A stretch of DNA of 45,081 nt. Origin: a virus. Location: IMG/VR virus record IMGVR_UViG_3300048914_000065; one strand, written 5' to 3'. Position numbers and translations under genes: made by a program. The notes below the pieces were generated by a model. The model was given only the letters and a program-made list of their open reading frames with translations, was not told the DNA's origin and made no database searches. This document shows positions 1,330-44,081 of the stretch, piece by piece (position 1 is the first letter of the stretch; every line of letters starts with the position of its first letter).

Positions 1330-4191
1330 CTAGATTTGAATTCCGTTAACGTCGACTACGCCGTTTATAAAATCGGCGTCATTATCGTAATATCGGTCGT
1401 CGTAGTTAATCGCCTTGATGTTCGAAGTAAAGTTGTCGTTCGGTGTTTTTTCGCTAACGAGGAACGCGTTTTGCCGAGCAGAGTTGTTGCCCACAATAAC
1501 ATAGGTCGCGCGGGCATACAAATCTTCGCCCAGGGCTAGCGCTGCGCGTGGCGGGTTCGCAAGTACGATCTTGTTAGATGCGCTTGCGCTGTTAATCTGG
1601 ATCGATTCGACAGTGCCGTCTACGTGCTGAATAAACACCGTGTACGTGACGCCAGTTTCGAACGTGACATCGTGCGACAATTCAAGCTCAAGGCCGTTTT
1701 GTCCGATAACGTCACCGTCTTGTGTGCTGGGGCGCGTGTTATCGGCGACTAGGATTCGATCTTGCGGAATAATCAAATCGGCTTCTTGTGTCGCTTCGAA
1801 TTCGACAACTTGGTTAGAGTAGCGAATCTTGTTCCAATCGCGCCACGCGTGAAACCAAGCCTGTAGCCTATTTCGGATTCCGACGCTTTCTATCTTCTTC
1901 GGATTTACAGCGCTTCGATCTTCAGGCAAATAGAGCGTTACAAGTGCGTCGTCTTCAGGGTCGACGTATTGAAATTCAACGCCGTCGTTGTCGTTATTAT
2001 TGCCGAAGTTAATTGTTCGCGTTTCACTACCGGGTAGCTTGTTCCTATGGTTGAATAGTAAGACGCTATCTTGTGTAGCCTTTTCGAATGCCAGCTTTAT
2101 GACATTGCCGCGACGATACGCTTGACAGAAAACAGCGTCGGCTATTGAGATTGCCATTTCTTCGAAGGACACGTTAGTGTTGTCAAACGTGTGGTTAAAC
2201 TTGCTTGCTATGGAAGTTCCGAAATATGATTCAACGGCGGCGATGGATTCGTAGAAGTTAGTTATGTCGATTTCGTCAACGCTACGATTACCAATATACG
2301 GGTCAAGGCAAACAGCCCGCAGAATGTCAGCAGCGTTACTTGTGGGCATAACTGCAAACGAGCCATCTTCCTGTCTAGATTCGATTTTTCGACTAGCCAA
2401 TACGTTAAGCTTGCGTTCTTTCAGTGTCAAAGCACCGCTTGTTACGAACGTCACACTTTGGATTGTCGTAACGTTTCCGAAATGGGTTTGATCTACGTCA
2501 GAAACTGCGTATAGGTCACGCCATTTGACCTCGTCGACAACCGAACCTTTGAATGACAAATCTGATGCCGTTACGCGTCGTGCCCGTACGCTGTATCGGC
2601 CCGCCAATGCGGTTACAACTTTTACACTAATTGCACGCGTCGTACGATAGATTGCGGAACCTTGCACAACGGCTTGCCACGATTCGACTGAACCTCGTGA
2701 CGAACCGTCGGCGTTGATCGGGGTCGCTTCAAGTTCTAGTGTTACATCGAATTGTTGTTGATTTTGCCCATCGTCCTTGTAAAGACCGTTCAACGCTACG
2801 AAGTTCGCATAAATCTTTTGGCGATTCAAACCGTCAATTATAAAAGGTCCGACCCATTTATCGCCGCTAGTCGTTACGGTCGGACTCATGTACGACGATG
2901 CGGTTAAACCTGTCCAGCTAGAACTCACACTGGCCGGGTCAGACAGATGAATCGTCGAATCGTCTAGTGAAACGATAAGATACGATCCGTTAAAATCATA
3001 GGTAGGTGTACCTGTCGAAATTTTTAGACTTGCGGTCGCTTGCAATTCTCCGTCGGCGAGCGCCCAATCAGAATTTATATTAGACGGGTCGATTAGAGTG
3101 ATTCGATGCAAGTACAAACTGCCTAACATTTCTGTTTCGACGGAGTCGATTTTATAAGTACCGGAAAGGCTATACGCCTGATACGAGCTAAAATTGAATT
3201 CGTCGTACACAAAAAACTTAGCATACACGATTGTAATTTCGGCACCGGCCACATAATTCGAATCGATTGCACTCACGGCGAATTCGAAATATCCGTCAGA
3301 ATAGGCGGTTATTTCTTGTGTTTGCGTAACGTACGATGAATACAACGACGCATTCTGAACGTGCAGCAGGTCGCCCGATGAAAACTTGTCACCGAATTTT
3401 AACCCCGAATCAGGTTTAATTTCGATGACGTTAGGTGCGACGAATCTTATGTTATTGTCACCTACGACACTTTGCCCGTTAGGCGAGCGCAGGACTTGAC
3501 CGTTTACGGAGTTTGAGCGCTTAACGTTTAGTACGGGTTCACTTATGTCAGAACCGATCCGCAATTGTGGCGAATCGCCGGAATTAGGCGAAGTATTAGG
3601 TCCGTAAACTTCTACCGACGCGCCGTCGATGTCGGCGATCAATGTCGTGTCGTCGCGCACGTCAGACACTTCGTATAATCCTCGGCCGACGCACATATAC
3701 GCGTATTCAACTTCGATATGGTTGATAAACAGGCTGTAAGGTACGGCCAGTAAATCAGGCGTTGAACGAACTGTTCCGTAAATGTCTGGAATGCGCGCTA
3801 AGGGTCGAGGTTTGTTGGTGCGTTCAGCCAGATCGTTATTAGGGCTTTGCTCTTGTGTGTTTCGAAGTGCCGTATTCGGAATCTTCGCTTTAAGCACAAC
3901 TGCTACAACGACCACTGCGACGATAAGCGCTACAACGTACCAGATTGCAGAGACGTAACCGGGATAGACTACAACATAGAATGGCCCATCGAGTTCATTT
4001 AAACGAGCAATTCCAGCATCGTCGCGAGGCGTTACGTCGGTTGATTCTGAAACGTTGCCGTTGTAGATGCGCGCCGTATCGGGCCACACGTCAAATTGGC
4101 TTTGCAAAAATTCGCATACATTCGCGGTTTCATGCGTAGTCCAACTTTGGGGCTCGAATGCGTTTTTTGCTAATACGATAGTTTTCAGCAT
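1330..4191 (-). CDS. Central tail fibre / host-specificity protein (lambda gpJ-like) fused to an N-terminal gpI-like module and a hydrophobic segment.
   Basis: 953 aa, and the last large gene in a TMP-M-L-K-(I)-J order. Residues 1-75 form a small module ending FYVVVYPG, followed by AIWYVVALIVAVVVVAVVL and then RPLARIPDIYGTVR, which resembles the start of J-type tip proteins. Confidence 0.7.
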   Translation of the reverse strand: MLKTIVLAKNAFEPQSWTTHETANVCEFLQSQFDVWPDTARIYNGNVSESTDVTPRDDAGIARLNELDGPFYVVVYPGYVSAIWYVVALIVAVVVVAVVLKAKIPNTALRNTQEQSPNNDLAERTNKPRPLARIPDIYGTVRSTPDLLAVPYSLFINHIEVEYAYMCVGRGLYEVSDVRDDTTLIADIDGASVEVYGPNTSPNSGDSPQLRIGSDISEPVLNVKRSNSVNGQVLRSPNGQSVVGDNNIRFVAPNVIEIKPDSGLKFGDKFSSGDLLHVQNASLYSSYVTQTQEITAYSDGYFEFAVSAIDSNYVAGAEITIVYAKFFVYDEFNFSSYQAYSLSGTYKIDSVETEMLGSLYLHRITLIDPSNINSDWALADGELQATASLKISTGTPTYDFNGSYLIVSLDDSTIHLSDPASVSSSWTGLTASSYMSPTVTTSGDKWVGPFIIDGLNRQKIYANFVALNGLYKDDGQNQQQFDVTLELEATPINADGSSRGSVESWQAVVQGSAIYRTTRAISVKVVTALAGRYSVRARRVTASDLSFKGSVVDEVKWRDLYAVSDVDQTHFGNVTTIQSVTFVTSGALTLKERKLNVLASRKIESRQEDGSFAVMPTSNAADILRAVCLDPYIGNRSVDEIDITNFYESIAAVESYFGTSIASKFNHTFDNTNVSFEEMAISIADAVFCQAYRRGNVIKLAFEKATQDSVLLFNHRNKLPGSETRTINFGNNNDNDGVEFQYVDPEDDALVTLYLPEDRSAVNPKKIESVGIRNRLQAWFHAWRDWNKIRYSNQVVEFEATQEADLIIPQDRILVADNTRPSTQDGDVIGQNGLELELSHDVTFETGVTYTVFIQHVDGTVESIQINSASASNKIVLANPPRAALALGEDLYARATYVIVGNNSARQNAFLVSEKTPNDNFTSNIKAINYDDRYYDNDADFINGVVDVNGIQI

Positions 4192-4607
4192 GAATAAAAC
4201 CTTAATGTTTTGAAACCTCGCGATGCTAGTTCGATTGGCATAAATTCGACGCCCCGCTCAGTGATGTGCAAGACTCGGCCGCGAACGTACATGCCCACAT
4301 GTGGCGATTCCTTGGGCGCCTGCATGAGCACTAGGCAGGGGTCTTGCGGCTTCGCCAAACGTAAGAACGCTTGCGTGTTATGTTTGCGTACTCGTTTCGT
4401 CGGCAGATACCAAAGGCCGTTCAACCGTTCTGTTATGTCAATTCCCGTTAGGTCTAGCCAAGCGTCACGAACAAGATGCAGACAATTATAACTTGCGAGG
4501 TTGAAAGTTCGATCTAAATATTTGTCTACACTGAACGACTTGTTAGACAAAGCCCCGAAGCATGGGGAAGCGTTCAAAGTCATAAATTTCACCAGTTCTG
4601 TTGACAT
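4185..4607 (-). CDS. Tail tip assembly protein with NlpC/P60-type peptidase fold (lambda gpK position).
   Basis: 140 aa with a Cys in SYNCLHLVRDAW and His residues in PHVGMYV and VLHITE. It lies between the L-like and J-like genes. The start is uncertain because the ORF overlaps the upstream gene by 65 nt. Confidence 0.65.
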   Translation of the reverse strand: MSTELVKFMTLNASPCFGALSNKSFSVDKYLDRTFNLASYNCLHLVRDAWLDLTGIDITERLNGLWYLPTKRVRKHNTQAFLRLAKPQDPCLVLMQAPKESPHVGMYVRGRVLHITERGVEFMPIELASRGFKTLRFYSC

Positions 4608-5515: not shown

Positions 5516-8500
5516 TTATCGCTTTCGTTGCGTATTCGTGTTACGGCCTAGCGCTTTCGAAGTGCGCGAGTTAGGATTGCTCATATCGGCTGCGATTACG
5601 TTAGGGGCGTGCTGATATACGGCGCTTTTAGCCTCGTCTCTCGCAATGATACGAATTTCACTTTCGCTGATTTGATTAACCTCAAAATCTTTAGACGTTC
5701 CATAGTTTTCGATGTTGACGGAAACTCCACCCGTGTTGCCCACATTAGCCCGGCCCGATGACGGCTTAGCCCCGCGATTCATCGCTTCAAGCATTGGGCG
5801 ATTGCGCGCGGTAGCTTCGGCGTTCACAACGAATTCCTGTCCGTGCACAATGCCCGCGACTTCTTTACGGCCAAAATTGCCTGTGTATCCACCTTCTTCG
5901 AAGCCCGCCATGCCGGCCAGGGCGAACGCCTGAGTTGTTGCGATGGTGCCGGCCACAGCAGCCATAGCCGGCATTGAGTTGGTGCCAAGCGTTGCCAGAG
6001 ACGCCAGCGCGGCCGGCGTCGCCCACATAGCCGACAGGGTCGCCGCTTCCGTAGCACTCGCAGCCGTCGCCGCAGCGGCCAGAGATTGCCCCATGGCGGC
6101 GTTTATCGCGTACTGGATACCCAGCTTCACCAGGGACGAAATAAGGCTTGCGACGGCCGATCTGGCGGCGTTGCCGAGTGCGTCCGTCAGGCTGTCACCG
6201 AACGCAATGGAATGCCCGATTGCGTCGGCGAATCCGTCACCCGTTTGCTTGAAGAAATCACCGAACGAATTTGACAGGCCGGAAATCATCCCGTTGTATC
6301 CGTCAGTGATTCGACCAATCGACGCCAACATACCTTCTTCGAACGACGCCGATTGCATTTGCAATTTCGTGTTCAACGCTTCTTTGCCAATATCGGCCAA
6401 ACCTTGTTTATAGAACTGTTCGTTGATCCAGCCATTTTTTAATGCTTGATTTAGCGCTAATACTTTATTTGTAAGTTCTTCTTGCTTCCCGGCGCTTTGT
6501 TCATACAGTGCGTCCAGTTCTCGCGCAACGTCATTTTTACGCTGATACGCTGCTACCGCTTGTTCTAATGATTGGCGTTCTTCGTTGTTAAGCACAATAC
6601 CTCGCGAACGCAGCGTGTTTTCGACTTGAAGTATTTGCGTTGCAATCGCACGCGCCGAACCTTGCTTGTCAAGAAGCGTCGAATTTTCCCGCATTTCACG
6701 ATTGATTCGGATAAGCGGGGCGATAGCATCGGCGTATGTATCAGTTGCCAAGTTCATTGCTTGCGCGAATTGGTCGGCAGTAATGCGACCTTCGGACAGC
6801 AGCCGCAGCGAAGCTTGTTGCGTTGCGTTGTAATCGCGAAGCGGCCCATTAGCGGTTTCGTACACCCGGTCAATCGCCTCTTGCGCGGCTTTGTTGTCTT
6901 GAATCGTTTGCAGTTTTGAACGCAGTGTTGCGCGTTCATCGTCGGTCAACTTAATACGTTTTTCAGCAAAGCCGATTTCGATTTCATCGAGTTTCTGATT
7001 AACTTCGCGAACGCTTGCAATTTGACCGAACGTGTTAAGTTGCTTATCAAGTTCGGCGTTAGTTTTCTTTAATTCTTTGGCGCGGTCGGTCCCTTCAGGG
7101 GTGTATTTGCGACGAATAGCGGCCTCAATTTTGGATTGGTTCTTAAGTGCGTTAAGTGCGTCTTGATCTTTTGGGTTAGCCTTCAGGGCTTTATCCAGAT
7201 CGGAGCGGAACGCGTTAATTTCGTCTTTTGCCTTGCTTATATTGTCTGTCATTCCGGCCCATTTATTCGCGAGCCGTTCCGACGCATCGGCGCCCTCTTG
7301 TTGAATCGTCGCGTTCTTCGCGGCCAGATCAACAGTTTTAGTCATACCTTCGACAATCTGCTGTTGAGCCACGATCTGTTCGCGTAGGGCGTCAATTGCG
7401 GCTTGCCGTTTAGACAGTTGAGCGTTTGCAGCACGTTCGTTCGCCGAACCCTGCACAGGTTTTAATCCACTGTTTCCCGACGATATTTCGCTACCTATAC
7501 GACCTGTCGGCATCGGTGCGGACTCCAGTACTTTCAGGCTTGCTTGCAGTCGTTTCAGTTTTTCTTCAGGTGTTTCGTCGCGCCCCCATGCTTTCATTTT
7601 CTCCCAAGCTGACGATACGGCGTTGCCGATGCTGCGCCACGCCGATTCAAGATAGCCTAGATTCGCCGGGCCTTTCGTGCCGAGATAGTCGTAAAGACCT
7701 TGCGCAACAGCTTTCAGTGCGCCGGTTTTGTCACCCATGTCTTCAAGTTGCCTAATGTGGGCAAGCTGCGCCGACGATAAAAAGTGTAAGCTGCTATTCA
7801 GCGTTTTCGCGTATTGCGTCGGCCCTGTCGCCATCGTGTCGAACGATTTTACGACATCTTCGGCGCTTTGGCCGGTGTATTCGGCCATCAACAGTGCGGA
7901 CGCCGCTAATTGGCCGATTTGGTCTTTCTGGAATTTACCTGATGCCGCCAATTGCATTACTACTGCCTTTGATGCGCCGATACTTACGTGCGCGGTTTCG
8001 GCCGCAGCTTTGGAAATTTGCTGAAAGCCGGTGTAGGTGATACCGGCATATCCATTGGTAATTTTCAGCGCGTTATTAAATGCCGCCTGTTCTTTCGACG
8101 CGGCGTTAAGTGCAATCGCATAGATGCCCACAGTAGCGGCAATGGCTCCTATGATCGCCCCGGTCGGGCCGATCAGTCGGGCGAACGTCATAATCGTCCC
8201 TTTGATACCGCCAAACGCCTGCGTGACTTGTCCACCCTGTTGCATAAGGATGGTGAACGGCGACATACCCGTCGATAACGACGCCGCCACATCGTTAATC
8301 GTGTATTGGATCGTTAGCATTTGCATGCGGGTTAGGCCGGTTGTTTGGTTCAACTGTTGCATGACCCGATTATGTACTTGCGCCCCTTGGGCTGCGCGCA
8401 CCTGCGACTGTCCGACACGCTGCGTTGCCAATTCGGCGCGAGCCTGGGCCGCTGCTGTTCGTTGCGTTTCGGTTGCCAAACGTTGCTGTTCAGTTGCTAG

Positions 8501-10152: not shown

Positions 10153-11694
10153 TTACGACGGCATGCCCACAGTGGGTAGGTACGGGAAGTGCGAAAGGGC
10201 CAGCGTGAAACCGTATTTATTTGCCGATGCGGCGCTGTCGACCGGGATCATGATCGCGTTGTCTTTTTCGACGCTGACTCGTCCGCCCGCGAGCGTGATA
10301 AGCGGCATGTCGACGACGAACCCGGCGTTCAGTTGCGACGCAATCAGGTTGAAAGACACGTCGGCATTGTTGCGCACGGCTTGAACCGCTGCGATAGTTT
10401 GGAAGTACGGCGAAAGACTTCCGCTAACTTCGAAGTCAGCGGCCGAAGTGTCGAAACCGCCGAGAACGCCGATAGCCTTATTGGCTTTCACGCCGTTGTT
10501 GATGACGATCTTCGCTTCGGTGACGTAACCAAACAGCGGCGACGATTGGCCCAGGATCGCGACGCGTTGTCGGAAGATGTCCGACGACGTGTTGTAAGCT
10601 TCTTCGCCGGGGGCTGAAACTCGCGTGCCGGCTTTTACGCCTTGCGTGCCGGTGCGGGTTTGTTCGTCGAGTGCGACGAACGTCAGATCGACGTTGATTT
10701 TATCGGTTTGCGGAACGTTAATCGTCAGTTCATTCGGAACAGCGCCGACGAGAACTTGCGATTGCGTACCGGAACCGTCATCGCCGAGTTGCCGTTCGAC
10801 TTGATACGAACGACGCTTAATGAGCGAACGAACGTTTTCGTTCTTCAGGAACGTGCCGAAGAAGATACGAATTGTTTTCGTTGCGCCGGTATCCGTGAGC
10901 GGGGCGCCGGTGAATTCTTCCAGCGTGATCGACTTTGCGGCGATTGAGGAAATGCGACCGTAGAACGGCGTACCCGTTGCGAATTTTTCGGCGGCACCGT
11001 CGCCACCGACGAACAGCCATTCGCCCAGGTTAAGACCCAGTGTCGTGAGGTCGGCGGCGGTCACGCCCAGTGTCGCGACGGTTCCGTTTACGGTCAACGT
11101 TGCGTCGCCCGCTGCGAATTGCCAGCCGACCGCGTGAAGCTTTGCGGCAACGGGCGGGGAAGCTTCGACGGTTAGACCGCCAACAGTTACGCTACCGGCC
11201 GCGCTTGCCGTGACCAGTTTCAGGCCGTTGTTGCCCGAGTTGGTGAACCCGCTTGCCAAGATCAGATGGTTCGCCAGGAACGAGCCCAAGCCCGACGCGG
11301 CGTTGTATTTGGTTGCGTCGGCGCTGGTGATCGTGACGCCAACCGCGCCGGTAATCGGGGCGGTCGTCGGTTTCTGGCGTGCGTCGGCGAAGAAGAAGCC
11401 TTGCAGCAGCCGGGTAAGGTTCGATTGCGTCAAGTCTTGATTCAACCCGCCCGATGCGTCCAGATCGGTCGTCGAACCTTTCCGGCGCTGGCGGTCGCCG
11501 CTAATCGGCGCGCGTGCGATGGTTGTAATGTTCGAACCGTAGTCGCTGTAGGAGTTCGGCTCCAGGTCGTACCATACGGCCTGGGTTTCGTCGCTAACGC
11601 CGTTCGTAACTACGCCCGGCAGAACTTTAAGCGATGATTCTTCAGCATACGCAGCCGAAGTGATGTTACTGTCAATCTTATTCGGAGTCGTCAT
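10153..11694 (-). CDS. Major tail (tube) protein, large form.
   Basis: 513 aa, between a terminator-like protein and the chaperones. It is visibly GC-rich like the capsid gene and is followed by a stem-loop. Confidence 0.55.
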   Translation of the reverse strand: MTTPNKIDSNITSAAYAEESSLKVLPGVVTNGVSDETQAVWYDLEPNSYSDYGSNITTIARAPISGDRQRRKGSTTDLDASGGLNQDLTQSNLTRLLQGFFFADARQKPTTAPITGAVGVTITSADATKYNAASGLGSFLANHLILASGFTNSGNNGLKLVTASAAGSVTVGGLTVEASPPVAAKLHAVGWQFAAGDATLTVNGTVATLGVTAADLTTLGLNLGEWLFVGGDGAAEKFATGTPFYGRISSIAAKSITLEEFTGAPLTDTGATKTIRIFFGTFLKNENVRSLIKRRSYQVERQLGDDGSGTQSQVLVGAVPNELTINVPQTDKINVDLTFVALDEQTRTGTQGVKAGTRVSAPGEEAYNTSSDIFRQRVAILGQSSPLFGYVTEAKIVINNGVKANKAIGVLGGFDTSAADFEVSGSLSPYFQTIAAVQAVRNNADVSFNLIASQLNAGFVVDMPLITLAGGRVSVEKDNAIMIPVDSAASANKYGFTLALSHFPYLPTVGMPS

Positions 11695-12517: not shown

Positions 12518-12518
12518 A

Positions 12519-31233: not shown

Positions 31234-31275
31234 ATTACGCCGTGTTCGATGATGCTTCAGGCCCGGCGACAGCCT

Positions 31276-34219: not shown

Positions 34220-34277
34220 TCGTTCCTGTCGAGAAACGATCTTGACCACGATTAACTAAACCTGGGATGCCCACACT

Positions 34278-35318: not shown

Positions 35319-35822
35319 ATGGAAAATCTGTCAGTCAATGCAGGCTGGACCGGCGCACCGAAAAAAGCAATGACCGTCGAAGAACGCGACGCGCTGTTGA
35401 ACAAATGGCTTGCCGCGCAACAAGCCTTGGTGAAGGCGAAAGACGAAGAAGCGAAGTTGCGCGCCCAGGTCGTTAGCGACATTATCCAGGCCAAGCCGGG
35501 CGAAAAAGGTACGCGTAACTACGAACTGAACGCCGGGTACAAGCTGAAAGCCGTCTTGAAGCTGAATTACAAGCTGAACAACGACGAAGTAGATAACACG
35601 CTTGACCGTATCGAACGCATCGGCGAAGAAGGCAAGTTCATTGCCGAACGACTGGTAAAGTTCAAGCCCGAACTGTCGGTTACGGAGTACAACACGATTT
35701 CGGAACGCGCCGCCAACGGCGACAGCACGGCGAAGAAGATCATTGCCGAGCTGAACAAGATTCTTACCATTTCCGACGCTACGCCGTCGCTTGAATTGGT
35801 CGAACCGAAAGCCAAGAAGTAA
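35319..35822 (+). CDS. Coiled-coil protein, possibly Sipho_Gp157-like.
   Basis: 167 aa, immediately upstream of the AAA_24-type ATPase as in Sfi21-type replication modules. The similarity judgement rests on position and composition only. Confidence 0.3.
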   Translation: MENLSVNAGWTGAPKKAMTVEERDALLNKWLAAQQALVKAKDEEAKLRAQVVSDIIQAKPGEKGTRNYELNAGYKLKAVLKLNYKLNNDEVDNTLDRIERIGEEGKFIAERLVKFKPELSVTEYNTISERAANGDSTAKKIIAELNKILTISDATPSLELVEPKAKK

Positions 35823-35864: not shown

Positions 35865-36545
35865 ATGAACGTAACTAAAGAACTGAAACCGGCGTCATCG
35901 TTCGCGCAGCAATTCGGCGTCAAAGCCTTGCTGTTCGGCGGGCCGGGTATGGGTAAAACTCCGTTGCTGAACACGGCCCCGCGCCCGGTTCTGTTGGCGG
36001 TCGAACCCGGCTTGCTGTCGATGCGGGGTTCGAATATCCCGACGTTCGAAGCGTTCAACAACTACGCACGAATCGAAGGCTTCTTCGAATGGCTGTTCAA
36101 CAGCGCCGAAGCAAAGCAATTCGATACCGTCGGCGTTGACAGTATTTCGCAAATCGCGGAAATTGTCTTGGCCGAACGGCTGGCGAAGAACAAAGACCCG
36201 CGCAAGGCGTACGGCGAAATGTCGCAAAAGTTGATGGAATACGCAAACGGCCTGTACTTCATGCAAAACAAGCATGCGTATTTGATCGCAAAGCAAACCA
36301 GTGCCGACGAAAACGGCGCGATTCGCAAGAAACCGTATTTCCCAGGTCAAGACCTGAACGTAAAAATTCCGCACCTATACGACGAAATCTTGCATTTGGG
36401 TAAAGCGATGATCCCAAGCGTCGGCGAACAAATCGCTATTCGAACAAAAGAAACGTTCGAAATCATGGCCCGCGACCGTTCCGGCAAGTGCGCCGAACTG
36501 GAACCGCCGAACTTGGGCCAACTGTTCCAAAAGATCATGCAGTAA
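35865..36545 (+). CDS. RecA-fold ATPase (AAA_24 / Sak4-like single-strand annealing or recombination protein).
   Basis: 226 aa with Walker A LLFGGPGMGKTP and a Walker B-like VGVDSIS. It is followed by the DUF669-type SSB. Confidence 0.65.
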   Translation: MNVTKELKPASSFAQQFGVKALLFGGPGMGKTPLLNTAPRPVLLAVEPGLLSMRGSNIPTFEAFNNYARIEGFFEWLFNSAEAKQFDTVGVDSISQIAEIVLAERLAKNKDPRKAYGEMSQKLMEYANGLYFMQNKHAYLIAKQTSADENGAIRKKPYFPGQDLNVKIPHLYDEILHLGKAMIPSVGEQIAIRTKETFEIMARDRSGKCAELEPPNLGQLFQKIMQ

Positions 36546-36601
36546 TCGGCGAAACGATACCGCCATTTAAAGTTATCGTAACCTGATAGAGAAAGCATCA
36601 A

Positions 36602-37345
36602 ATGCCAGCACTTCAACAACCGTTCAACTCCTCGCAGTTCGACCCCGCGACCGGCTTTTCGCAACTGCCCGTCGGCGAACATCCCGTTATTATCGTCGCT
36701 TCATCCATCGACGGCAACAAGAACCAGACCGGCGGATATGTCAAACTGAGCGTCAAAGCCATTGACGGCCCGGCAAACGGCCTGTCGATGGATTGGCGTT
36801 TGAATTTGTACAACGCATCGCAGAAAGCCGCTGAAATCGCGCATCGTCAACTGTCGGCGATTTGCCATGCTGTTGGTGTTCCGGCGTTCCAGCAAACTGA
36901 AGAACTGCACGGCAAACCGTTCGTCGTCATCGTCCAGCCGCAAAAGGAAGATGACAAGTACAACGAAATTTCCGGCTGCAAGTATATCGACGGTTCGCAG
37001 ATCAAGCCGGGGCAATACGGCGTCGCGGGCGGCGGTCAAGCCCAGGGCCAGCAGGGCGGCAACTGGGGCGGTCAACCGCAAGGCCAACAGCAACCGCAAG
37101 CCCAGCAGCCGCAAGGTGCATGGGGCGGTGCGCAGGCCCAGGGCCAGCCACAACAGCCGCCCCAGCAACAACCGCAGCAGCCCGCCCAAGGTCAACCGGC
37201 TTGGGGTGGCTCGCCCCAGGGTCAACAGCAGCCGCAGCAGCAAACGGGCGGTCAAGCCTGGGGCGGCGCACCCGCAGCCAACAACGGCGCCGGCCAGTGG
37301 CAACAGGGTCAACAGCAGCCCGGCAACAAACCGGCCTGGGGCTAA
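36602..37345 (+). CDS. ssDNA-binding protein (DUF669-type) with a roughly 110-aa Gln/Gly/Pro-rich tail carrying five WG(G) repeats.
   Basis: 247 aa. It has a globular N-terminal region of about 135 aa, followed by GGGQAQGQQGGNWGGQPQGQQQPQ...AWGGA...AWGGS...AWGGA...KPAWG. The gene is GC-rich. Confidence 0.6.
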   Translation: MPALQQPFNSSQFDPATGFSQLPVGEHPVIIVASSIDGNKNQTGGYVKLSVKAIDGPANGLSMDWRLNLYNASQKAAEIAHRQLSAICHAVGVPAFQQTEELHGKPFVVIVQPQKEDDKYNEISGCKYIDGSQIKPGQYGVAGGGQAQGQQGGNWGGQPQGQQQPQAQQPQGAWGGAQAQGQPQQPPQQQPQQPAQGQPAWGGSPQGQQQPQQQTGGQAWGGAPAANNGAGQWQQGQQQPGNKPAWG

Positions 37346-37413: not shown

Positions 37414-37929
37414 ATGCTTCGCAATCCAAAACGAATTAGTAGCTTACTGCCGAACCCTTCGAACTGCGATAACTGCGGTTCAATGAACATTCGTTACACG
37501 ACCAACGACGTAATTTACGGTCGCATATTTGGCGAGTGGCCCCAATGCTGGTTTTGCGATGATTGCCGGGCGTCGGTCGGTTGTCACCCCCAAACTACGC
37601 ACCCGCTTGGGCGAATGGCCGACCGAGCAACAAAGAAGCTTCGTAACGATGCGCACAAAGTTTTTGACGTGCTTTGGTCGTCTGGTCTTATGACACGCGA
37701 CCGTGCTTACGTTTGGCTTGCCAATGAACTTAACATAGAAGCAGAACAAGCCCATATCGCATTACTTAACAAGGAACAGTTAAAACAGGTAATCGAGGCA
37801 AGCAAAGTATTCTTTGACGAACGCCAAAACATCATCGACCGTCGGAAAGCAAAACGTAATGAAAAACACCGAAACGAAAACAACCGAGAACGCCAACGAA
37901 TCGCCCTGCGAAAGCGCACCGGAAAGTAA
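37414..37929 (+). CDS. Zinc-finger protein, DUF3268-like.
   Basis: 171 aa. The pattern CDNCGS...WFCDDCRASVGCHP..THPLG...LRNDAHKVFDVLW...RDRAYVWLA is followed by a basic tail. Confidence 0.5.
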   Translation: MLRNPKRISSLLPNPSNCDNCGSMNIRYTTNDVIYGRIFGEWPQCWFCDDCRASVGCHPQTTHPLGRMADRATKKLRNDAHKVFDVLWSSGLMTRDRAYVWLANELNIEAEQAHIALLNKEQLKQVIEASKVFFDERQNIIDRRKAKRNEKHRNENNRERQRIALRKRTGK

Positions 37930-38857
37930 AGGCGTTCCGCCTGTAGACCTATCGGCCCCAGGCGTTAAAAAGGCCGTCGCCCAACGTATCAAAGCCGACA
38001 TCGATAAGTATTGCGAAGTGACGTACGACGACGGGCACCGTACGCATTTGGGTGCGTCGAAGATTGGCGAAGAATGCGCCCGCGCGCTTTGGTACGGATT
38101 TCGATGGGTAAGCGCCGAAAAATTCAATGGTCGTATGCAACGCCTGTTTCAACGCGGACACCGTGAAGAACCTTACGTGTTCGAACACTTGCGCGGCGCC
38201 GGATTCCAAATCTTCGAATTCGACGAATCGTTGCCGCTGAAAGACGGAAAGCCGCAGCAATACCGATTCAGTGCTGCATGTGGGCATTTCGGCGGTTCAC
38301 TCGACGCGGTTTGCAAGCTGCCTGCGCATTACAATATTGCCGAACCAATGCTCATTAGCATCAAAACAAAAGCCACCGGAACAGGGTTTAATGAACTGTC
38401 AAGTGACGGTGTAAAGGTTGTAGCGCCTGTGCACTACGCCCAAGAATGCACTTACGGCCGCGCGTTCGGTTTGAAATACGCATTGTATGTGTATAGGAAT
38501 AAGAACGACGACGACCAACATATAGAAGTTGTCGAACTGGATCATAAACACGCCGAACAGCTGGAAATGAAAGCCGAACGTATCATTTTCAGCCGCGAAG
38601 CGCCGCCGCGTATTTCCGAAAACCCGGCGTTTAAAACTTGCAAGTTCTGTTGGTTCGGCAATGAAAAAACCGGCATTTGTTTTAAAAAGCCTGGGCATAC
38701 GCCAATCGACCGAAACTGCCGTAGTTGCAAAAATGCTGTTCCAGGCGAAAACAAAACTTGGAATTGCGATATTCATAGCCGAACTAACGGCCCGTTGCCG
38801 CCCAAAGGATTAGAAAATATCGCTGCGCAGTGTGCTGATTACGATCCCATCGTATGA
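37814..38857 (+). CDS. PD-(D/E)XK nuclease, Cas4/RecB-like, with a candidate Fe-S Cys cluster.
   Basis: 347 aa. It carries LGASKIGEECARALWYGFRW near the N-terminus and CKFCWF...GIC near the C-terminus. The start is uncertain: the ORF overlaps the upstream gene by 116 nt, and ATG 37858 is an alternative. Confidence 0.55.
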   Translation: MTNAKTSSTVGKQNVMKNTETKTTENANESPCESAPESKGVPPVDLSAPGVKKAVAQRIKADIDKYCEVTYDDGHRTHLGASKIGEECARALWYGFRWVSAEKFNGRMQRLFQRGHREEPYVFEHLRGAGFQIFEFDESLPLKDGKPQQYRFSAACGHFGGSLDAVCKLPAHYNIAEPMLISIKTKATGTGFNELSSDGVKVVAPVHYAQECTYGRAFGLKYALYVYRNKNDDDQHIEVVELDHKHAEQLEMKAERIIFSREAPPRISENPAFKTCKFCWFGNEKTGICFKKPGHTPIDRNCRSCKNAVPGENKTWNCDIHSRTNGPLPPKGLENIAAQCADYDPIV

Positions 38858-40569
38858 AACTTCGGTATTATCAAGAGGGGGCGATACAAAGCGTGTTCGA
38901 TTACCATTACGAACACGGCGTAGAAGCCGGTAACACGATTGTCGCTATGCCCACAGGTACGGGCAAGTCGCCGACAATCGGCGGGCTGTTGATCCGGCTG
39001 TATAAAGAATGGCCGTCGTTGCGCGTGTTGAACTTGACGCACGTAAAAGAGTTGATCGCGCAGAACGTCGAAAAGCTGCAAATGATGTGGCCGACGGCCC
39101 CAGTTGGTATCTATTCGGCGGGCCTGGGTCAACGCGACACAATGTTGCCGATTCTATTCGGCGGCGTGGCAAGTATCGTAAAAAGCGAAGCTATTCTGTC
39201 GCAACATTGGGACATAGGAATTATTGACGAATGCCATCTGTTAAGCCCTGAAGAAGATTCAATGTATCAAGTAATTGTTGCGGCCGTCATGGCACGCAAC
39301 CCGCGCTTTAAGCTTATCGGCTTTACCGCAACGCCGTATCGACTGAAACAAGGATTGATTACCGACGGCGGTATTTTCAGCGATATTTGTTGCGACCTCA
39401 CCGGCGTTGATGCGTTCAATCGATTCATCAACGAAGCGTATTTGTCGCCGTTGATCGCTAAGAAAACCGATGTTCAAATCGAAGCGTCGGAATTAAAAAT
39501 TGTCGGCGGCGAGTATGCAGCAAAGCCGCTTGAAGCTGAAATCGACAGAATCATGGTTCCGGGGTTACGCGAAGTATGCGACCTGGGCCAGAACCGTCAT
39601 AAATGGTTGATCTTTACGGCCGGCGTTGCAACTGCTGAACGCTGCGCCGAAATCTTGAATAGCTGGGGCGTTAGCGCGATGGCTGTTCACTCCAAGCTGA
39701 AGGGCTCCGAAAACGATAAGCGAATTGCCGCGCATAAGGCCGGGCAGTTTCGCGCGCTTATCAACGTCGGCAAACTGACAACCGGATACGACGACCCAGG
39801 AATAGACCTGATCGCAGTATTTCGCAAGACGACTTCGCCGGGCCTTTGGGTTCAAATTCTAGGACGTGGAACGCGACCGCTGTATATGCCTGGGTTTGAT
39901 CTTGAAACCGTCGAAGGCCGATTCGAAGCCATGTACGCAGGGCCGAAGCAAAACACATTGGTTCTTGACTTCGCAGCGAACACCGAAGAATTAGGCCCGA
40001 TCAACGACGTTCGCATACCGCGCAAGAAGGGCAAAGAAACCGGCGATGCACCTGTACGCATTTGCACGAAAGAAGCCCTTAAAGTAAATGCGACGCGCGA
40101 AAAATGGGAAATGGAAGATGGATGCGGCGCGTACAATCATGCAAGTGTTCGTAGTTGCTGCAATTGCGGGCGCGAATTTCTGTTTCAAACGCACATTCTA
40201 GCAAGCGCGACCGATGCGGAACTGATCAAAGGTAACGAAGCTGTCGTAGAATACTTCAACGTTGACCGAGTGTTTTATAGCTCGCATGAAACTTCTAAGG
40301 GCCGAAGCCTTAAAGTAACGTACGCGTGCGGTATGCGTAGTTTCCGCGAATACGTAAGCATCGAATACACCGACCCGTCGGCACACTTCGCACGCAAACG
40401 CGGTCGCGACTGGTTCCGCCAACGATTCATTAGCGACGGCGAAGATGTGACGCCACCCGAAACCGTAGACGAAGCATTGCAGTACGTAAGCCGACTCAAA
40501 GAACCGAAACGCTTACGCGTTCGTACCGATCAACAATACCCTGAAATATTAGGCCATGAGTTCTTCTAA
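38854..40569 (+). CDS. Superfamily-2 DEAD/DEAH-box DNA helicase with a C-terminal zinc-ribbon region.
   Basis: 571 aa with Walker A AMPTGTGKS, IIDECH, GFTATP, helicase-C TTGYDDPGIDL...ILGRGTR, and CGAYNHASVRSCCNCG. Confidence 0.85.
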   Translation: MKLRYYQEGAIQSVFDYHYEHGVEAGNTIVAMPTGTGKSPTIGGLLIRLYKEWPSLRVLNLTHVKELIAQNVEKLQMMWPTAPVGIYSAGLGQRDTMLPILFGGVASIVKSEAILSQHWDIGIIDECHLLSPEEDSMYQVIVAAVMARNPRFKLIGFTATPYRLKQGLITDGGIFSDICCDLTGVDAFNRFINEAYLSPLIAKKTDVQIEASELKIVGGEYAAKPLEAEIDRIMVPGLREVCDLGQNRHKWLIFTAGVATAERCAEILNSWGVSAMAVHSKLKGSENDKRIAAHKAGQFRALINVGKLTTGYDDPGIDLIAVFRKTTSPGLWVQILGRGTRPLYMPGFDLETVEGRFEAMYAGPKQNTLVLDFAANTEELGPINDVRIPRKKGKETGDAPVRICTKEALKVNATREKWEMEDGCGAYNHASVRSCCNCGREFLFQTHILASATDAELIKGNEAVVEYFNVDRVFYSSHETSKGRSLKVTYACGMRSFREYVSIEYTDPSAHFARKRGRDWFRQRFISDGEDVTPPETVDEALQYVSRLKEPKRLRVRTDQQYPEILGHEFF

Positions 40570-40792
40570 AGACGACAAATTAGACCGTTATAGACCATTA
40601 GCGGCGTTCGCAATCCTTCGTAGCATTAAAACCGTCGATCCTAACGAACTTGTGAAGTCTTGCATTTCTTGCGACTTTTTCGTAGAATCAAAGGAAGCTT
40701 GCAAAAAATCCGAAATGCAACGACCGCCCGCCCGCGTAATCGCATTCGGCTGCAAAGCGTATGAATGCATTGACGATGACATACCATTCTAG
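40556..40792 (+). CDS. Small Cys-containing protein ending in the bacterial SSB C-terminal tip, DDDIPF.
   Basis: 78 aa. Cys pattern: CISC...C...CKAYEC. The last six codons, gac gat gac ata cca ttc (40772-40789), give DDDIPF followed by a stop. Confidence 0.6.
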   Translation: MSSSKDDKLDRYRPLAAFAILRSIKTVDPNELVKSCISCDFFVESKEACKKSEMQRPPARVIAFGCKAYECIDDDIPF

Positions 40793-40800
40793 GGCGAAAC

Positions 40801-41808
40801 ATGGCAAATAATAGTAAACGTGCGCGTCGTAAAACTGACGAACAATCAAACCTTGTCGCCGCCCTAAAGTTCGTCGCAGCGGCCCAGGGAGACAGCAAAG
40901 CTGAAACCCAGCATACACACGTAATGCTTTCGAAGCAATGGGCGACGGCAACGAACCCGATTTTCGCAATGGGGCATCGTATCGCCGACGACATTGACGC
41001 GTGCCCACATACGGTCCGACTCATTGACGCGCTGTCGAAGTGCGGCCAAACGCTATCGATTACGACCCTTGATAGCGGTAAGCTTTCTATCAAATCCGAC
41101 AAGTTCCGCGCGCTGGTTCCTTGCGTCCCTGGGGCGCTTATGCCGCCCGCCCTGCCCGATACCCCTTGCGCTACCCTGAACGACGCGCTGCGGGCCGGAT
41201 TCGCGGCCGTGGCCGACGTTGCCGGGCCTGTCCAGGGTCGGGAATGGGCAAACGCGGTCTTGCTGCAAGCCGGGTCGGTCATTGCGTGCGATGGAATTTG
41301 CGCCGTTGAATACTGGCACGGCATCGACTTGCCGCCCGGCCTTATCGTACCGAAAGCCGCAGTTGCCGCGATTCTGAAAACCGGCAAGCCGCTTGCGCAC
41401 TTCGGATTTTCCCAAAATACCGCAACGTTCTATTTCGACGACGAATCATGGTTGAAAACTCAACTGTTGACCGTCGAATATCCTAACGTAGGTCGAATTC
41501 TTAACGTAAGTTCGAACCCTTGGCCGTTGCCGCCTGGGTTCTTCGACGCGCTAAAGTCGGTCGCATCGTTTAGCGAAACCGGACAGGTATTCTTTAATCA
41601 AAACGTATTAGCGTCGCACCCTAACGGCGAAGAAGGCGCAATGTACGAAATCGAAGGCATACCGCCGAATAAAGCGTACAATAGCAAATACCTGTTGGCG
41701 TTCGAAGGCTTGGCCGACAGATTCGATTTCAACCCGCACGACCCCATAGGCAATTGCGTTTTCTTCGGAGATAATTTGCGCGGCGTTATTGCAGCAATCA
41801 GGCGTTAA
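40801..41808 (+). CDS. DnaN-like beta sliding clamp.
   Basis: 335 aa. By eye it aligns along its whole length with E. coli DnaN: KLSIKSDKFRALVPCVP (cf. RSGRSRFSLSTLP), IACDGICAV (cf. VATDGHRLAV), LIVPKAAV (cf. VIVPRKGV), TVEYPNVGRIL (cf. GRFPDYRRVLP), AYNSKYLL (cf. GFNVSYVL). Confidence 0.65.
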   Translation: MANNSKRARRKTDEQSNLVAALKFVAAAQGDSKAETQHTHVMLSKQWATATNPIFAMGHRIADDIDACPHTVRLIDALSKCGQTLSITTLDSGKLSIKSDKFRALVPCVPGALMPPALPDTPCATLNDALRAGFAAVADVAGPVQGREWANAVLLQAGSVIACDGICAVEYWHGIDLPPGLIVPKAAVAAILKTGKPLAHFGFSQNTATFYFDDESWLKTQLLTVEYPNVGRILNVSSNPWPLPPGFFDALKSVASFSETGQVFFNQNVLASHPNGEEGAMYEIEGIPPNKAYNSKYLLAFEGLADRFDFNPHDPIGNCVFFGDNLRGVIAAIRR

Positions 41809-41809
41809 G

Positions 41810-41995
41810 ATGAGCAAGCAAAGCAACGCGGCGGCGCAACTGTTCGCACTAATCGACGAACTTAGAACGACCGCCGAAGCTTCCCAGGAAATGAACCGCG
41901 TTTACCGCGATTACATACGGTCGCAAGCCTTTCGTATCGAAGCATTAGAAAAAGAGTTGGAACAACTGCGCGGGACTAAACCGAATGTTCTTTGA
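41810..41995 (+). CDS. Small coiled-coil protein.
   Basis: 61 aa from ATG 41810, one nt after the clamp gene stop. The track start 41789 lies inside the clamp gene. Confidence 0.4.
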   Translation: MSKQSNAAAQLFALIDELRTTAEASQEMNRVYRDYIRSQAFRIEALEKELEQLRGTKPNVL

Positions 41996-44081
41996 AGACG
42001 AAGACACAATAGTTTATGAAGAAGGCGAAGAAGGCCCAGCCCTTCGGGAAAAGCCGAAGCGTAAACTAATCGCGGCGCTTGAACGAGTTTTGCGCCCGTT
42101 ACACTTCTTTACCGACGCCGAACTAATGACGGCGGCGCACCGCGAAACGTTAGTGCTCGATACCGAGTGTTACCCTAACTTTTGGCTTTGTTCGTTTAAG
42201 TCAATCGAAAGCGGGCGCGCGGTATCGGTCGAACTGTCGGCGGATTGCGACTTAGACAGGCCGAAACTTGAATGGATTCTTTGGCATTTCCGAACGGTCG
42301 GATTCAACAGCCGTCGTTATGACTTGCTAATGATTTCGCTTGCGTTGAAGGGTTTGCCCGCCTGGGAACTGCATCAAGTTTCAACGGCAATCGTCAAAGG
42401 TACGGAACGGCTATCTGACATTTACGACAGGTACAACATCGCTACGCCGCCGTTTAATCATATCGACGTTTTCGACGTAGCACCGTTGCCCGACATTTCG
42501 TTGAAAACGTATTCAGGTCGCCTGCACGCAAAGCGCATGCAAGACTTGCCGTACGATCCGACGGAGCCTCTAACGCGCGAGCAGGCGCACCACACGCGAT
42601 ATTACTGCTTCAACGACATCGATAACACCGGGTTGATATTCAACAGTCTATCAAAACAACTTGAACTGCGCGAAGCCCTTGGCCGTGAATACGACCAAGA
42701 CTTACGAAGCAAGTCGGATGCTCAGATCGCCGAAGCCGTGTTCGGTGCGGAAATCGCTAAGATCACCGGGCGCTATCCAAAGAAGCCGAAGATTGAACCG
42801 GGCACGACGTTTCGCTACAAGATGCCGTCATATATCAGGTTCCAAACGCCAATCTTACAAGCGTTGGCCGATGCAATCGCGCAACAGGATTTCGAAATAG
42901 ACAAAGCAGGGTATCTGTTGATGCCGCCGACGGTCGGCCCGTTCGTCGTAATTGGCAAAGGAAACAAGCCAATCAAAGGCCCAGGTAAGGGCAATATCAA
43001 GTTGAACCTTTGGGGCAAGCCGTACAGTGTGGGCATGGGCGGGTTGCATTCGAACGAATCGTCTATTGCCCACATTAGCGACGCCGACACGCTGGTTATT
43101 GACGATGACGTGGAATCATATTACCCGCGCATCATCTTGAATCAACGATTGTTTCCGCCGCACTTGACCGATGCATTCTTGACGGTTTATGAAACATTCG
43201 TTAGCCGTCGTATCGCGGGTAAGAAATCCGGCGATAAAGTCGTAGCCGATTCGCTAAAGATCGTTATTAACGGATCGTTCGGCAAGTTAGGTTCGAAGTA
43301 TTCAATTTTGTATTCGCCCGACTTGCTATTGCAAGTTACGCTAACCGGGCAACTCTCATTGTTAATGCTTATTGAAATGATGGAAACCGCAGGGATTCCA
43401 GTTATTTCGGCGAATACTGACGGCGTTGTTAAGAAATGCCCTAAACATCTTTACGCCGTGCACGAAGCAATTCTGCGCGAATGGGAACGAATTACCGACT
43501 TCAAGACAGAACAAACGCAGTATAGGGCCGTGTATAGTCGTGACGTTAACAATTACATCGCGATTAAAAAGAACTTCGATAAAGATCGTAAGGTATGGCT
43601 TGATGAATTCCCGGTCGGGACCAAACTAGATAAAATGACGAAGGGTAAAGGGGCGTTCGGCAATCCATGGCTCGGCGGCGATTCTGTCGAGATTATGAAG
43701 AAGAACCCCGAATTTACGATTTGCGTTGAAGCTGTAACGCGGTTTTTAAACGATCGCACGCCAATCGAAACGACGATTCGGGAATGCCGCGATATCACGA
43801 AATTCGTTGCAGTTCGCAACGTAAAGGGCGGGGCGGAAAAGAATGATGTTTACTTGGGCAAGGTCGTACGATGGTATTACGCTGAAGGTGAGAAAACACC
43901 AATCTTATCGGTGCTGTATGAAAGTACGGTCCCGAAATCGACAGGCGGAAAGCCTTTAATGGATTTGCCGGATGAATTTCCAGCCGATGTAGACTACGAA
44001 CGATATATCGAAGAAGCTAGCGAAATGTTATTCGATATCGGTTACGCGATTCGACCAAATACGCAAATCAAGTTCTTCTAA
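41985..44081 (+). CDS. DNA polymerase, family-B-like, with an N-terminal 3'-5' exonuclease domain.
   Basis: 698 aa. Exonuclease motifs: VLDTEC (ExoI), GFNSRRYDLLM (ExoII), YYCFNDID (ExoIII). Polymerase motifs: DDDVESYYPRII (DxxSxYP type), KIVINGSFGKLG (KxxxNSxYG type), SANTDGV (DTD position). The C-terminus is QIKFF. Confidence 0.8.
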   Translation: MFFEDEDTIVYEEGEEGPALREKPKRKLIAALERVLRPLHFFTDAELMTAAHRETLVLDTECYPNFWLCSFKSIESGRAVSVELSADCDLDRPKLEWILWHFRTVGFNSRRYDLLMISLALKGLPAWELHQVSTAIVKGTERLSDIYDRYNIATPPFNHIDVFDVAPLPDISLKTYSGRLHAKRMQDLPYDPTEPLTREQAHHTRYYCFNDIDNTGLIFNSLSKQLELREALGREYDQDLRSKSDAQIAEAVFGAEIAKITGRYPKKPKIEPGTTFRYKMPSYIRFQTPILQALADAIAQQDFEIDKAGYLLMPPTVGPFVVIGKGNKPIKGPGKGNIKLNLWGKPYSVGMGGLHSNESSIAHISDADTLVIDDDVESYYPRIILNQRLFPPHLTDAFLTVYETFVSRRIAGKKSGDKVVADSLKIVINGSFGKLGSKYSILYSPDLLLQVTLTGQLSLLMLIEMMETAGIPVISANTDGVVKKCPKHLYAVHEAILREWERITDFKTEQTQYRAVYSRDVNNYIAIKKNFDKDRKVWLDEFPVGTKLDKMTKGKGAFGNPWLGGDSVEIMKKNPEFTICVEAVTRFLNDRTPIETTIRECRDITKFVAVRNVKGGAEKNDVYLGKVVRWYYAEGEKTPILSVLYESTVPKSTGGKPLMDLPDEFPADVDYERYIEEASEMLFDIGYAIRPNTQIKFF

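Follow-up and report, generated by a model that had tools for sequence, protein, structure and literature searches.

The subject of this work is a 45,081-nucleotide stretch of viral DNA, the IMG/VR record IMGVR_UViG_3300048914_000065 (the whole of which is referred to here as the window), which represents a siphophage genome of about 45 kb and carries, dispersed along its length, 26 exact copies of a single octamer, TGCCCACA on one strand and TGTGGGCA on the other. The octamer is enriched, rigid and independent of the host, is spaced evenly and with a polarity, is maintained by purifying selection, and co-occurs with a replication and recombination module and with a primase-polymerase homologous to NrS-1 N300. 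We infer that it may be the site at which the template is recognized and synthesis initiated by the archaeo-eukaryotic primase (AEP) primase-polymerase/helicase that the phage itself encodes, at 31523-33892 on the minus strand, with both the primase as the reader and priming as the function being proposals to which we give about even chances. Primase recognition words, Chi and iterons are kinds of element already known, while an exact 8-mer scattered over a genome at even intervals, alternating between strands and retained in kind throughout a broad group of phages whatever their host, appears to be undescribed. A full-text search of the searchable literature returned no description of such an octamer array, although the octamer was printed by accident in the ribosome-binding-site table of the KL1 genome paper (PMC3483164).

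An exact search of the window finds TGCCCACA 17 times on the plus strand and 9 times on the minus strand, which amounts to one copy per 1.7 kb. A preliminary description, made from the letters of the window, had listed 25 copies, all of them at correct coordinates, and had overlooked the one at 2341-2348 on the minus strand; its claim of enrichment proves to be stronger than stated, with 26 copies against about one expected. Dinucleotide shuffles give 1.04 copies (maximum 4) and Markov models of order 0 to 4 give 0.7-1.5. The codon-preserving shuffles that it had suggested give 6.0 copies and at most 12 when synonymous codons are exchanged within genes (4 of these being fixed copies outside the shuffled gene calls), and 3.9 when the order of codons is shuffled. 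The Markov models and the codon-preserving shuffles together lead to rejection of composition or codon usage as the source of the octamer, which ranks first by frequency among all 8-mers of the window. Its 24 one-mismatch variants occur only 0-4 times each, so that the unit is a rigid 8-mer in which all eight positions are fixed, with a weak bias in the flanks towards A before and T after the word. The embedded hexamer GCCCAC occurs 31 times, and the five copies outside the octamer lie at 6021, 13965, 14274, 20856 and 35825; the preliminary description had the number right, with the third and fourth of these positions placed slightly off, at 14271 and 20868. The word is thus exact, asymmetric, over-represented and biased in orientation (~1.7:1), as is expected of a Chi-type word.

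With the strand given as the one that carries TGCCCACA (so that TGTGGGCA reads 5'-3' on the opposite strand), the copies begin with 1488-1495 (plus), in the minus-strand gene 1330-4191 and in the phase T-GTG-GGC-A, 2341-2348 (minus), where 5'-TGTGGGCA-3' is read on the plus strand, and 4292-4299 (plus), within the minus-strand open reading frame (ORF) 4185-4607. They continue with 5737-5744 (plus) and 7756-7763 (minus), both in the tape-measure gene, the latter forming a close opposite-strand pair with 8125-8132 (plus), and with 10164-10171 (plus) in the tail tube gene, 11890-11897 (minus), 12511-12518 (plus), 15097-15104 (plus), 17932-17939 (minus), 18323-18330 (plus), 21658-21665 (plus) in the large terminase gene, 22515-22522 (minus), 22876-22883 (plus), 25199-25206 (plus), 25860-25867 (minus) and 30544-30551 (plus). 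Close to the primase-polymerase gene, the copy at 31227-31234 (plus) falls at the start of the minus-strand ORF 30976-31233, just 3' of that gene, the copy at 32008-32015 (minus) lies inside it, and the copy at 34268-34275 (plus) lies in the divergent control region, 2 nt ahead of the ATG at 34278. The remaining ones are found in the genes for the Cas4-domain exonuclease (38279-38286, minus), the SF2 helicase (38948-38955, plus), the sliding clamp (41002-41009, plus) and the DNA polymerase (43028-43035, minus, and 43067-43074, plus), the last two being an inverted pair with a 31-bp spacer. This pair, spanning 43028-43074, is the closest in the genome and an extreme example of the preferred pair polarity described below.

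The phase T-GTG-GGC-A or T-GCC-CAC-A is used by 15 of the 22 copies within gene calls, and by 16-17 if those at 4292 and 31227 are added, in line with the codon phase preference that had been noted in the preliminary description. Between two and four copies are non-coding, and those at 25199 and 34268 are indeed intergenic. At 34268-34277 the octamer stands between the ribosome-binding site and the start codon (TGCCCACActATG), an arrangement that is also seen in gene 54 of Burkholderia phage KL1 (GGGGAtgcccacattATG; PMC3483164), and the two examples indicate that tight junctions between genes likewise accommodate non-coding copies. The earlier suggestion of a constraint at the level of DNA, accommodated in the cheapest reading phase across unrelated genes, is borne out by the phase count, by the codon shuffles and by the retention of sites in a close relative (see below). 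When the octamers are masked, partial words are scarce in the window, with GTGGG observed 11 times against 52 expected and TGTGG 30 times against 57. The same depletion is seen in phages Eidolon, R3 and S144 and is absent in Queuovirinae; it may reflect selection against near-cognate sites, and, as it is modest, it is not used here as a main argument.

The arrangement of the copies is far from random. Taken by the strand on which 5'-TGTGGGCA-3' is read, successive copies alternate almost perfectly (-+--+--+--+--+--+--+-+--+-), giving 19 runs, the maximum possible (p=0.004), and the spacing is ~5.1 kb on the plus strand, with a coefficient of variation (CV) of 0.21, and ~2.6 kb on the minus strand (CV 0.46), both with p<0.001. 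Successive gaps extend from 39 bp to 4.7 kb, as had been stated before, and there is no clustering of the kind that defines iterons, the only gap below 360 bp being that of the 43028/43067 pair; such clustering appears only in the temperate phages NrS-1 and PSA and at the origin annotated in A2. The regularity of each strand is significant in 10 of 12 genomes and exceeds that of the pooled sites; over the genomes compared, the majority-strand spacing is 1.7-3.4 kb, and the spacing per strand, on both strands, is 1.7-5 kb (CV 0.2-0.5), which is the scale of Okazaki fragments. Across 95 related IMG/VR loci, the CV of same-strand spacing is 0.49 against 0.84 for random placement, and gaps below a quarter of the mean spacing make up 3.3% against 22.9%. 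Adjacent copies on opposite strands favour one polarity, with a median gap of 767 bp against 1200 bp for the other (p=0.0009); in that analysis, same-strand gaps under 700 bp account for only 4%. The strand bias (215:127, ~1.7x) has the same direction in 12 of 12 genomes, most copies having TGTGG on the strand that is sense for the structural genes, and in the clade of the window it holds to the same absolute strand within the replication block, which is transcribed in the opposite direction, suggesting an asymmetry of the replication type rather than a transcriptional one. Both the polarity and the even spacing per strand go beyond what the preliminary description had reported.

Comparison with relatives demonstrates that the sites are under purifying selection with turnover. 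The relative L115 (~80% nucleotide identity) has kept every one of the five window sites that can be aligned (38279, 38948, 41002, 43028 and 43067), although the flanks are 81% identical and 21% of sites would be expected to be intact; PaMx42 and Bhz58 retain 13 of 14 sites. Where relatives are down to ~50% protein identity, the number of sites at the same homologous position is only 0-4 of the 9-13 that can be mapped. Among those kept are the site at 18323 (in RcSpartan, AB_SZL7 and Paracoccus phage R3), that at 21658 in the terminase gene (in Eidolon and R3) and that at 41002 in the clamp gene (in four distant relatives). Retention in close relatives combined with turnover in distant ones means that number, polarity and spacing are conserved while the individual positions are replaced. 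A conserved protein motif as the origin of the word is rejected on the basis of this low positional homology, of the unrelated proteins in which the copies lie and of the copies that are non-coding.

A search of related phages, also proposed in the preliminary description, shows the same word to be enriched 10-40x in cultured phages of Pseudomonas, Xanthomonas, Stenotrophomonas, Sphingomonas, Rhodobacter, Paracoccus and Acinetobacter, as well as in the 95 IMG/VR loci. Against an expectation of 0.2-1.1 copies per genome, there are 18 in Pfeifenkraut, 15 in PaMx42, 14 in Bhz58, 24 in Eidolon, 16 in Rhodobacter phage RcSpartan, 26 in Paracoccus phage R3 and 24 in Acinetobacter phage AB_SZL7, and TGTGGGCA is the word of the window and of these seven cultured relatives. 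The 95 IMG/VR loci, which were retrieved through the terminase or the primase at 43-70% amino-acid identity and have a G+C content of 35-58%, contain 573 octamers in 1.45 Mb, or 0.40 per kb against about 0.02-0.03 expected, a rate derived from per-locus values (a single-protein query with the primase returned no relatives, but an alignment query did). More distant phages that share the replication module carry sister words which are equally rigid: TGTGGTTA x40 in E. coli phage GottfriedDienst (Bas21), TGTGGTCA x34 together with TGTGGTTA x9 in Pseudomonas phage NP1, TGTGGTCA x30 and TGTGGTTA x17 in 9g, TGTGGCTA x13 and TGTGGTCA x14 in BcepGomr, TTGTGGGT x31 in Salmonella myophage S144, and a weaker TGTGGACA/TGTGGAC in Microcystis phage Me-ZS1. 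All of the variants share the core 5'-TGTGG-3', and TGTGGTTA/TGTGGTCA is the pair of words that marks Queuovirinae.

The octamer occurs in phages of at least eight host genera from two proteobacterial classes, with a G+C content of 35-58%. A 50-kb sample of E. coli K-12 contains TGTGGTTA twice, TGTGGTCA once and TGTGGGCA not at all, against 14 copies of true Chi, whereas those phages of the group that infect E. coli have their own variant 30-40 times. Every carrier is of the lytic type, with its own polymerase and no annotated integrase, and every carrier encodes an NrS-1-type AEP primase-polymerase and a module of Sak4, single-stranded DNA-binding protein (SSB), Cas4-exonuclease and SF2 helicase. 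The structural and packaging genes of S144, GottfriedDienst and NP1 are unrelated and the type of polymerase varies, yet the word family is still present, which means that the array follows the primase and the recombination module. The word thus tracks the phage replication module and not the host.

The candidate reader in the window is a 789-aa protein with AEP, NrS-1-type helix-bundle and DUF3987 P-loop domains, which also matches the PHROG family of DNA primases. Its residues 9-272 match the NrS-1 N300 structures 6a9w, 6k9a and 7rr3 (E~3e-31), and Pfam recognizes the NrS-1 helix-bundle domain (HBD) and DUF3987. The primase-polymerase of NrS-1 has been reported to use its N-terminal domain to recognize 5'-GTGG/GTGA-3' and the 8-mer 5'-TTTGGTTA-3', with synthesis starting at the base immediately 5' of the site, and ORF904 of pRN1 recognizes 5'-GTG-3' through its HBD (PMC8718748). 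The TTTGGTTA word and the Seuratvirus word TGTGGTTA are one base apart, and the pattern of the octamer family, T-GTGG-NNN, contains the GTG/GTGG word of the characterized primases in all of its variants. Hidden Markov model (HMM) searches find the primase-polymerase in each of the 13 genomes that have a dispersed array, including S144, where it is mis-annotated. The core of the motif is kept in BcepGomr even though the helicase domain of its primase is of another type (AAA_25). The over-represented words of temperate relatives lie in clusters immediately 3' of the primase gene: in NrS-1, AAGTGTAAC occurs 11 times in both orientations and is confined to 17063-17369, a cluster that looks like the phage origin, and the sole TTTGGTTA of that genome spans two adjacent AAGTGTAAC repeats; in Listeria phage PSA, GGTGGATAG occurs five times at 34482-34706. 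The unit of the PSA cluster, AACTATCCACC x5 (5'-GGTGGATAGTT-3' on the other strand), resembles origin iterons and has a GTGG core. A further comparison is offered by the Moraxella prophage Mcat27, which has genes for a DUF7173-like protein, Sak4, SSB, Cas4-exonuclease and SF2 helicase in the same order, no primase and no enriched octamer, and which argues against the recombination module alone as the determinant of the array. The preliminary description had named a distributed array for a phage or host DNA-binding protein among possible roles; the phage-protein part of this suggestion comes closest to the present result, in which the best candidate is a phage primase-polymerase acting on a single-stranded template.

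In the mechanism proposed here, replication would expose a single-stranded template, on which the helix-bundle domain would bind 5'-T-GTGG-GCA-3', following which the AEP domain would start a primer opposite the invariant T that immediately precedes GTGG, extending it away from the site. An 8-nt site is expected by chance just once in some 65 kb of each strand, and selection is therefore proposed to have written the sites in at intervals like those of Okazaki fragments (~2.6 kb on one strand of the window and ~5.1 kb on the other), using the cheapest codon phase and seldom setting two sites of one strand near each other. About twice as many sites would then fall on whichever strand more often serves as template for lagging-strand synthesis. 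Temperate relatives would use the primase solely at the origin and would for that reason have kept similar GTG-containing words as iterons beside the primase gene, whereas phages with their own polymerase and clamp, in which all priming would depend on the primase, would need the word everywhere at fragment-scale spacing.

A number of observations weigh against a primase as the reader. Co-occurrence with the array is equally complete for DUF7173, Sak4, the DUF669 SSB, the Cas4 exonuclease and the SF2 helicase, no natural case among the carriers parts the primase from the rest of the module, and the Mcat27 control is confounded, this prophage being temperate and devoid of a polymerase. Phages PSA, A2, NrS-1 and BcepB1A encode a related primase and have no dispersed array, so that such a primase alone is insufficient; this includes BcepB1A, which has a divergent primase, a homologous polymerase of its own and no annotated integrase, and which lacks both the module and the array. 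The AEP-HBD regions of PSA, A2 and NrS-1 are nearer to that of the window than are those of the carriers S144 and BcepGomr, and in crude neighbour-joining trees of primase, exonuclease and helicase the variable dinucleotide of the word tracks the primase no better than the other genes. The iterons at the annotated origin of phage A2 contain no GTG, and we know of no precedent for a dispersed, genome-wide primase specificity of 8 nt. Neither per-domain identities nor the neighbour-joining trees tied the variable dinucleotide to any one gene. Two genomes considered as possibly dissociating the genes were set aside: PH669 is a scaffold from a Queuovirinae phage, carries the replication module and cannot separate the genes, and Vibrio phage VA-RY-3 has a whole divergent module and only a weak enrichment of AGCGGA that may be coding bias.

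The principal rival explanation, which we consider unlikely though worthy of attention, is that the octamer is a Chi-like mark of self for a phage nuclease-helicase. In such a model the Cas4 exonuclease and the SF2 helicase, translationally coupled and encoded by genes that overlap and adjoin in every carrier, would form an AddAB/RecBCD-like machine that degrades DNA from its ends until it meets a correctly oriented octamer, which would switch it to loading Sak4, so that phage DNA is spared and recombined while octamer-poor DNA of the host or of a competitor is destroyed. The rigidity, asymmetry and strong over-representation of the word are those of Chi, its polar and even spacing on both strands would suit the protection of a genome with ends anywhere, the close opposite-strand pairs of one polarity could act as two-way barriers, and BcepB1A, with primase and polymerase, lacks the module and the array alike. 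Mcat27, however, carries the module and has no array, sequence recognition is not known for phage Cas4-type exonucleases or for this helicase family, and domain scans of the exonuclease/helicase pair show no evident inactive helicase-like scanning domain. The scarcity of close same-strand copies would not be predicted either, as extra Chi sites should be harmless, and it would have to be a coincidence that the conserved core is the word defined experimentally for a homologous primase family (PMC8718748). Somewhat less probable still is a double-strand binding or loading array for DUF7173 or for the small protein whose gene lies just upstream of that of the primase, with the sites serving as directional loading points for a helicase or replisome (multiple origins) or as organizers of the replicating genome. 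DUF7173 is present in 13 of 13 carriers and absent from PSA, A2, NrS-1 and BcepB1A, it is annotated as a putative DNA binding protein in 9g and GottfriedDienst, a small ORF always lies ahead of the primase gene and is annotated as a helix-turn-helix protein in several relatives, and the close opposite-strand pairs resemble bidirectional start units. Set against this, the structural model of DUF7173 matches no known DNA-binding fold and its sequence has no match in the PDB, the DUF7173 of NP1 is as close to the TGTGGGCA clade as that of R3 although the word of NP1 is TGTGGTCA, a weak DUF7173-like gene is found in Mcat27 without an array, the small ORF has no Pfam match in the window, and the greater regularity of each strand alone than of the pooled sites points to a strand-specific reading.

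Two other explanations fare worse. It is improbable that the octamers are sites of nicking or base modification written by a phage enzyme, such as the interruptions of the T5/tf type or DpdA-type 7-deazaguanine. The word is short, exact, asymmetric and on both strands, and Queuovirinae members of the group carry DpdA/Que genes, but none of these genes was found in the window or in the Septimatrevirus-like clade, the array follows the replication module and not modification genes, and such targets would need no over-representation, even spacing or separation. No DpdA/Que protein, nickase or methyltransferase was found among the scanned proteins of the window, which included a part of its small ORFs. 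As to a word derived from the host (Chi, a DNA uptake sequence, or a word like the FtsK orienting polar sequences, KOPS) or a by-product of composition and codons, the density of one per 1.7 kb, the two orientations and the frame preference resemble uptake sequences, and length and rigidity resemble Chi. The preliminary description had proposed a host Chi, uptake or skewed word, which the host diversity and the E. coli K-12 control rule out: one and the same octamer serves phages of Gamma- and Alphaproteobacteria, the K-12 sample is poor in words that abound in E. coli phages, codon-preserving shuffles give about 6 copies instead of 26, and phages with non-homologous structural modules and the same replication module share the motif family. 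This explanation is effectively refuted.

A wider proposal, which we put forward only tentatively, is that the octamer is a lineage-specific barcode of self that steers the phage's own replication and recombination machinery to phage DNA only. The fixed core TGTGG and a variable tail of 2-3 nt (GCA, TTA, TCA, CTA and others), differing by lineage, would make up such a barcode; its positions would be programmed and even, so that every Okazaki fragment or repair event would start at a hard-wired site, and lineages with different tails would be replicatively incompatible.

The genome of the window is divided into two blocks. The minus strand carries the structural and early genes at 1.3-34.1 kb (among them those for tape measure, tube, Gp13-like capsid, portal and large terminase), and the plus strand carries the replication/recombination module at 34.3-44.1 kb, in the order MazG-like, DUF7173, Sak4-like AAA_24, DUF669 SSB, DUF3268, Cas4-domain exonuclease, SF2 helicase, clamp and DNA polymerase. 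Within this module, the genes on the plus strand include those for the DUF7173 protein (35319-35822), the Sak4-like AAA_24 recombinase (35865-36545) and the DUF669 SSB (36602-37345), the latter two identified by domain match and by the annotation of orthologues, and for the Cas4-domain exonuclease (37814-38857), which overlaps that for the SF2 helicase (38854-40569), the sliding clamp (40801-41808) and the DNA polymerase (41985-44081). The gene order is the same as in Xanthomonas phage Pfeifenkraut, Pseudomonas phage PaMx42 (Septimatrevirus), Stenotrophomonas phage Bhz58 and Sphingomonas phage Eidolon. The DUF7173 gene adjoins that of Sak4 in every phage that carries the array; the confident AlphaFold2 model of the protein (predicted local distance difference test score, pLDDT, 87) shows a long N-terminal helix, a small sheet and a helical bundle, and has no Foldseek match in the PDB. 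In S144, the region 39138-41675, given as a misc_feature with a hit to an NTP reductase small subunit, actually encodes a homologue of the primase-polymerase/helicase (HMM E 5e-30), and 36145-36573 encodes a DUF7173 protein (Pfam, 8e-42). Tail-fibre-like genes lie on the minus strand at both ends of the window, at 1330-4191 (953 aa, no Pfam match) and at 44113-44985 (a sub-threshold beta-helix match), which suggests a complete genome that is circularly permuted or has been opened arbitrarily. A DUF7173 protein of identical sequence is on record from a JGI contig of 45,166 bp.

Other enriched or avoided words were observed in the genomes compared. VA-RY-3 has AGCGGA 84 times against 30 expected and AAGCGGAA 29 times against 3.4, on both strands and with mildly regular spacing, and this word resembles an AddAB-type Chi (AGCGG / GAAGCGG) but may reflect a Glu-Ala-Glu coding bias. 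An apparent word of BcepB1A, CACGGGCGG, is a tandem coding repeat in gp58. The top over-represented word of Me-ZS1 belongs to a repeat of ~13 nt around CTGTTCATAACTC, with TGTTCATAA x11, which is probably regulatory and unrelated to the octamer family. Second, unrelated enriched words in two of the IMG/VR relatives (ACTCGACA x9 in L001; ACTCCTAT/TACTCCTA x5 in L004) may be promoter-like or other lineage signals. Some 5-mers are nearly absent from Eidolon (CGATC 1 of 130 expected, CGAGC 1 of 127), PaMx42 (CGAGC and CGCTC 1-2 of 145), RcSpartan (GTGGT 0 of 50, CGCTC 0 of 128) and AB_SZL7 (ACCGG 0 of 70), which looks like avoidance of restriction sites; the window has nothing so extreme.

If the octamer is indeed read by the primase, every Okazaki fragment would start at hard-wired, evenly spaced 8-nt sites in a large group of phages of relevance to therapy (Septimatrevirus, Titanvirus, Lokivirus, Queuovirinae and Loughboroughvirus) that infect Pseudomonas, Stenotrophomonas, Acinetobacter, E. 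coli and Salmonella. The choice of template by the primase-polymerase, the setting of fragment length and the restriction of priming by a virus to its own DNA would all become directly testable, for which PaMx42 with PAO1 and the BASEL phage Bas21 with E. coli K-12 are tractable systems. A barcode, if it exists, would be the first case of genome-wide, sequence-programmed initiation of the lagging strand or, alternatively, of a virus-encoded Chi system. Whatever its mechanism, the array is a host-independent genomic signature by which metagenomic contigs can be classified, it limits how these phages can be synonymously recoded and engineered, it offers a strong example of selection acting on words of DNA inside coding sequence, and it marks DUF7173 and the Cas4-exonuclease/SF2-helicase pair as partners worthy of study.

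The recognition sites of the NrS-1 and pRN1 AEP enzymes are among the nearest known systems: the window encodes a clear NrS-1 N300 homologue, its word family retains a T-preceded GTGG, and a strand-specific reading is proposed for it. The published sites, by contrast, are effectively 3-4 nt long, or are a single 8-mer at the origin, while the octamer has eight fixed positions and regular genome-wide sites on both strands that are kept by selection. The primase-helicases of phages T7 (gp4, 5'-GTC-3') and T4 (gp61, 5'-GTT/GCT-3') start Okazaki fragments only at a defined template word, opposite a template T and with 3' "cryptic" bases, and their fragments of 1-6 kb resemble the spacing of the octamer; their words, however, are trinucleotides or pentanucleotides that are common by chance and are not visibly enriched or evenly spaced, and the enzymes are of the TOPRIM/DnaG type, unrelated to the primase family of the window. 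Chi sites (5'-GCTGGTGG-3' for RecBCD in E. coli, and the AddAB Chi of Firmicutes) are likewise over-represented, exact and asymmetric 8-mers with an orientation-dependent meaning that lie in coding sequence at tolerated frames, but they are specific to a host and read by a host enzyme, whereas the octamer is specific to a phage lineage and independent of the host; even spacing or strand alternation of Chi has, as far as we know, not been described. The DNA uptake sequences of Neisseria and the uptake signal sequences of Pasteurellaceae share with the octamer a density of about one per 1-2 kb, both orientations and a preference of frame, and differ in that they occupy the genome of the competent host lineage, while octamer-carrying phages have diverse hosts and the word is missing from the host sample examined. 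The iterons of phage origins (the A2 origin, the NrS-1 and PSA clusters and, as a further example beside primase or initiator genes, P4 ori/crr) are, like the octamer, short exact words tied to a primase-helicase, and those of NrS-1 and PSA contain GTG(G/T) directly 3' of the primase gene; they are gathered at one or two loci, each within a few hundred bp, whereas the octamer is dispersed over the whole genome and forms no cluster.

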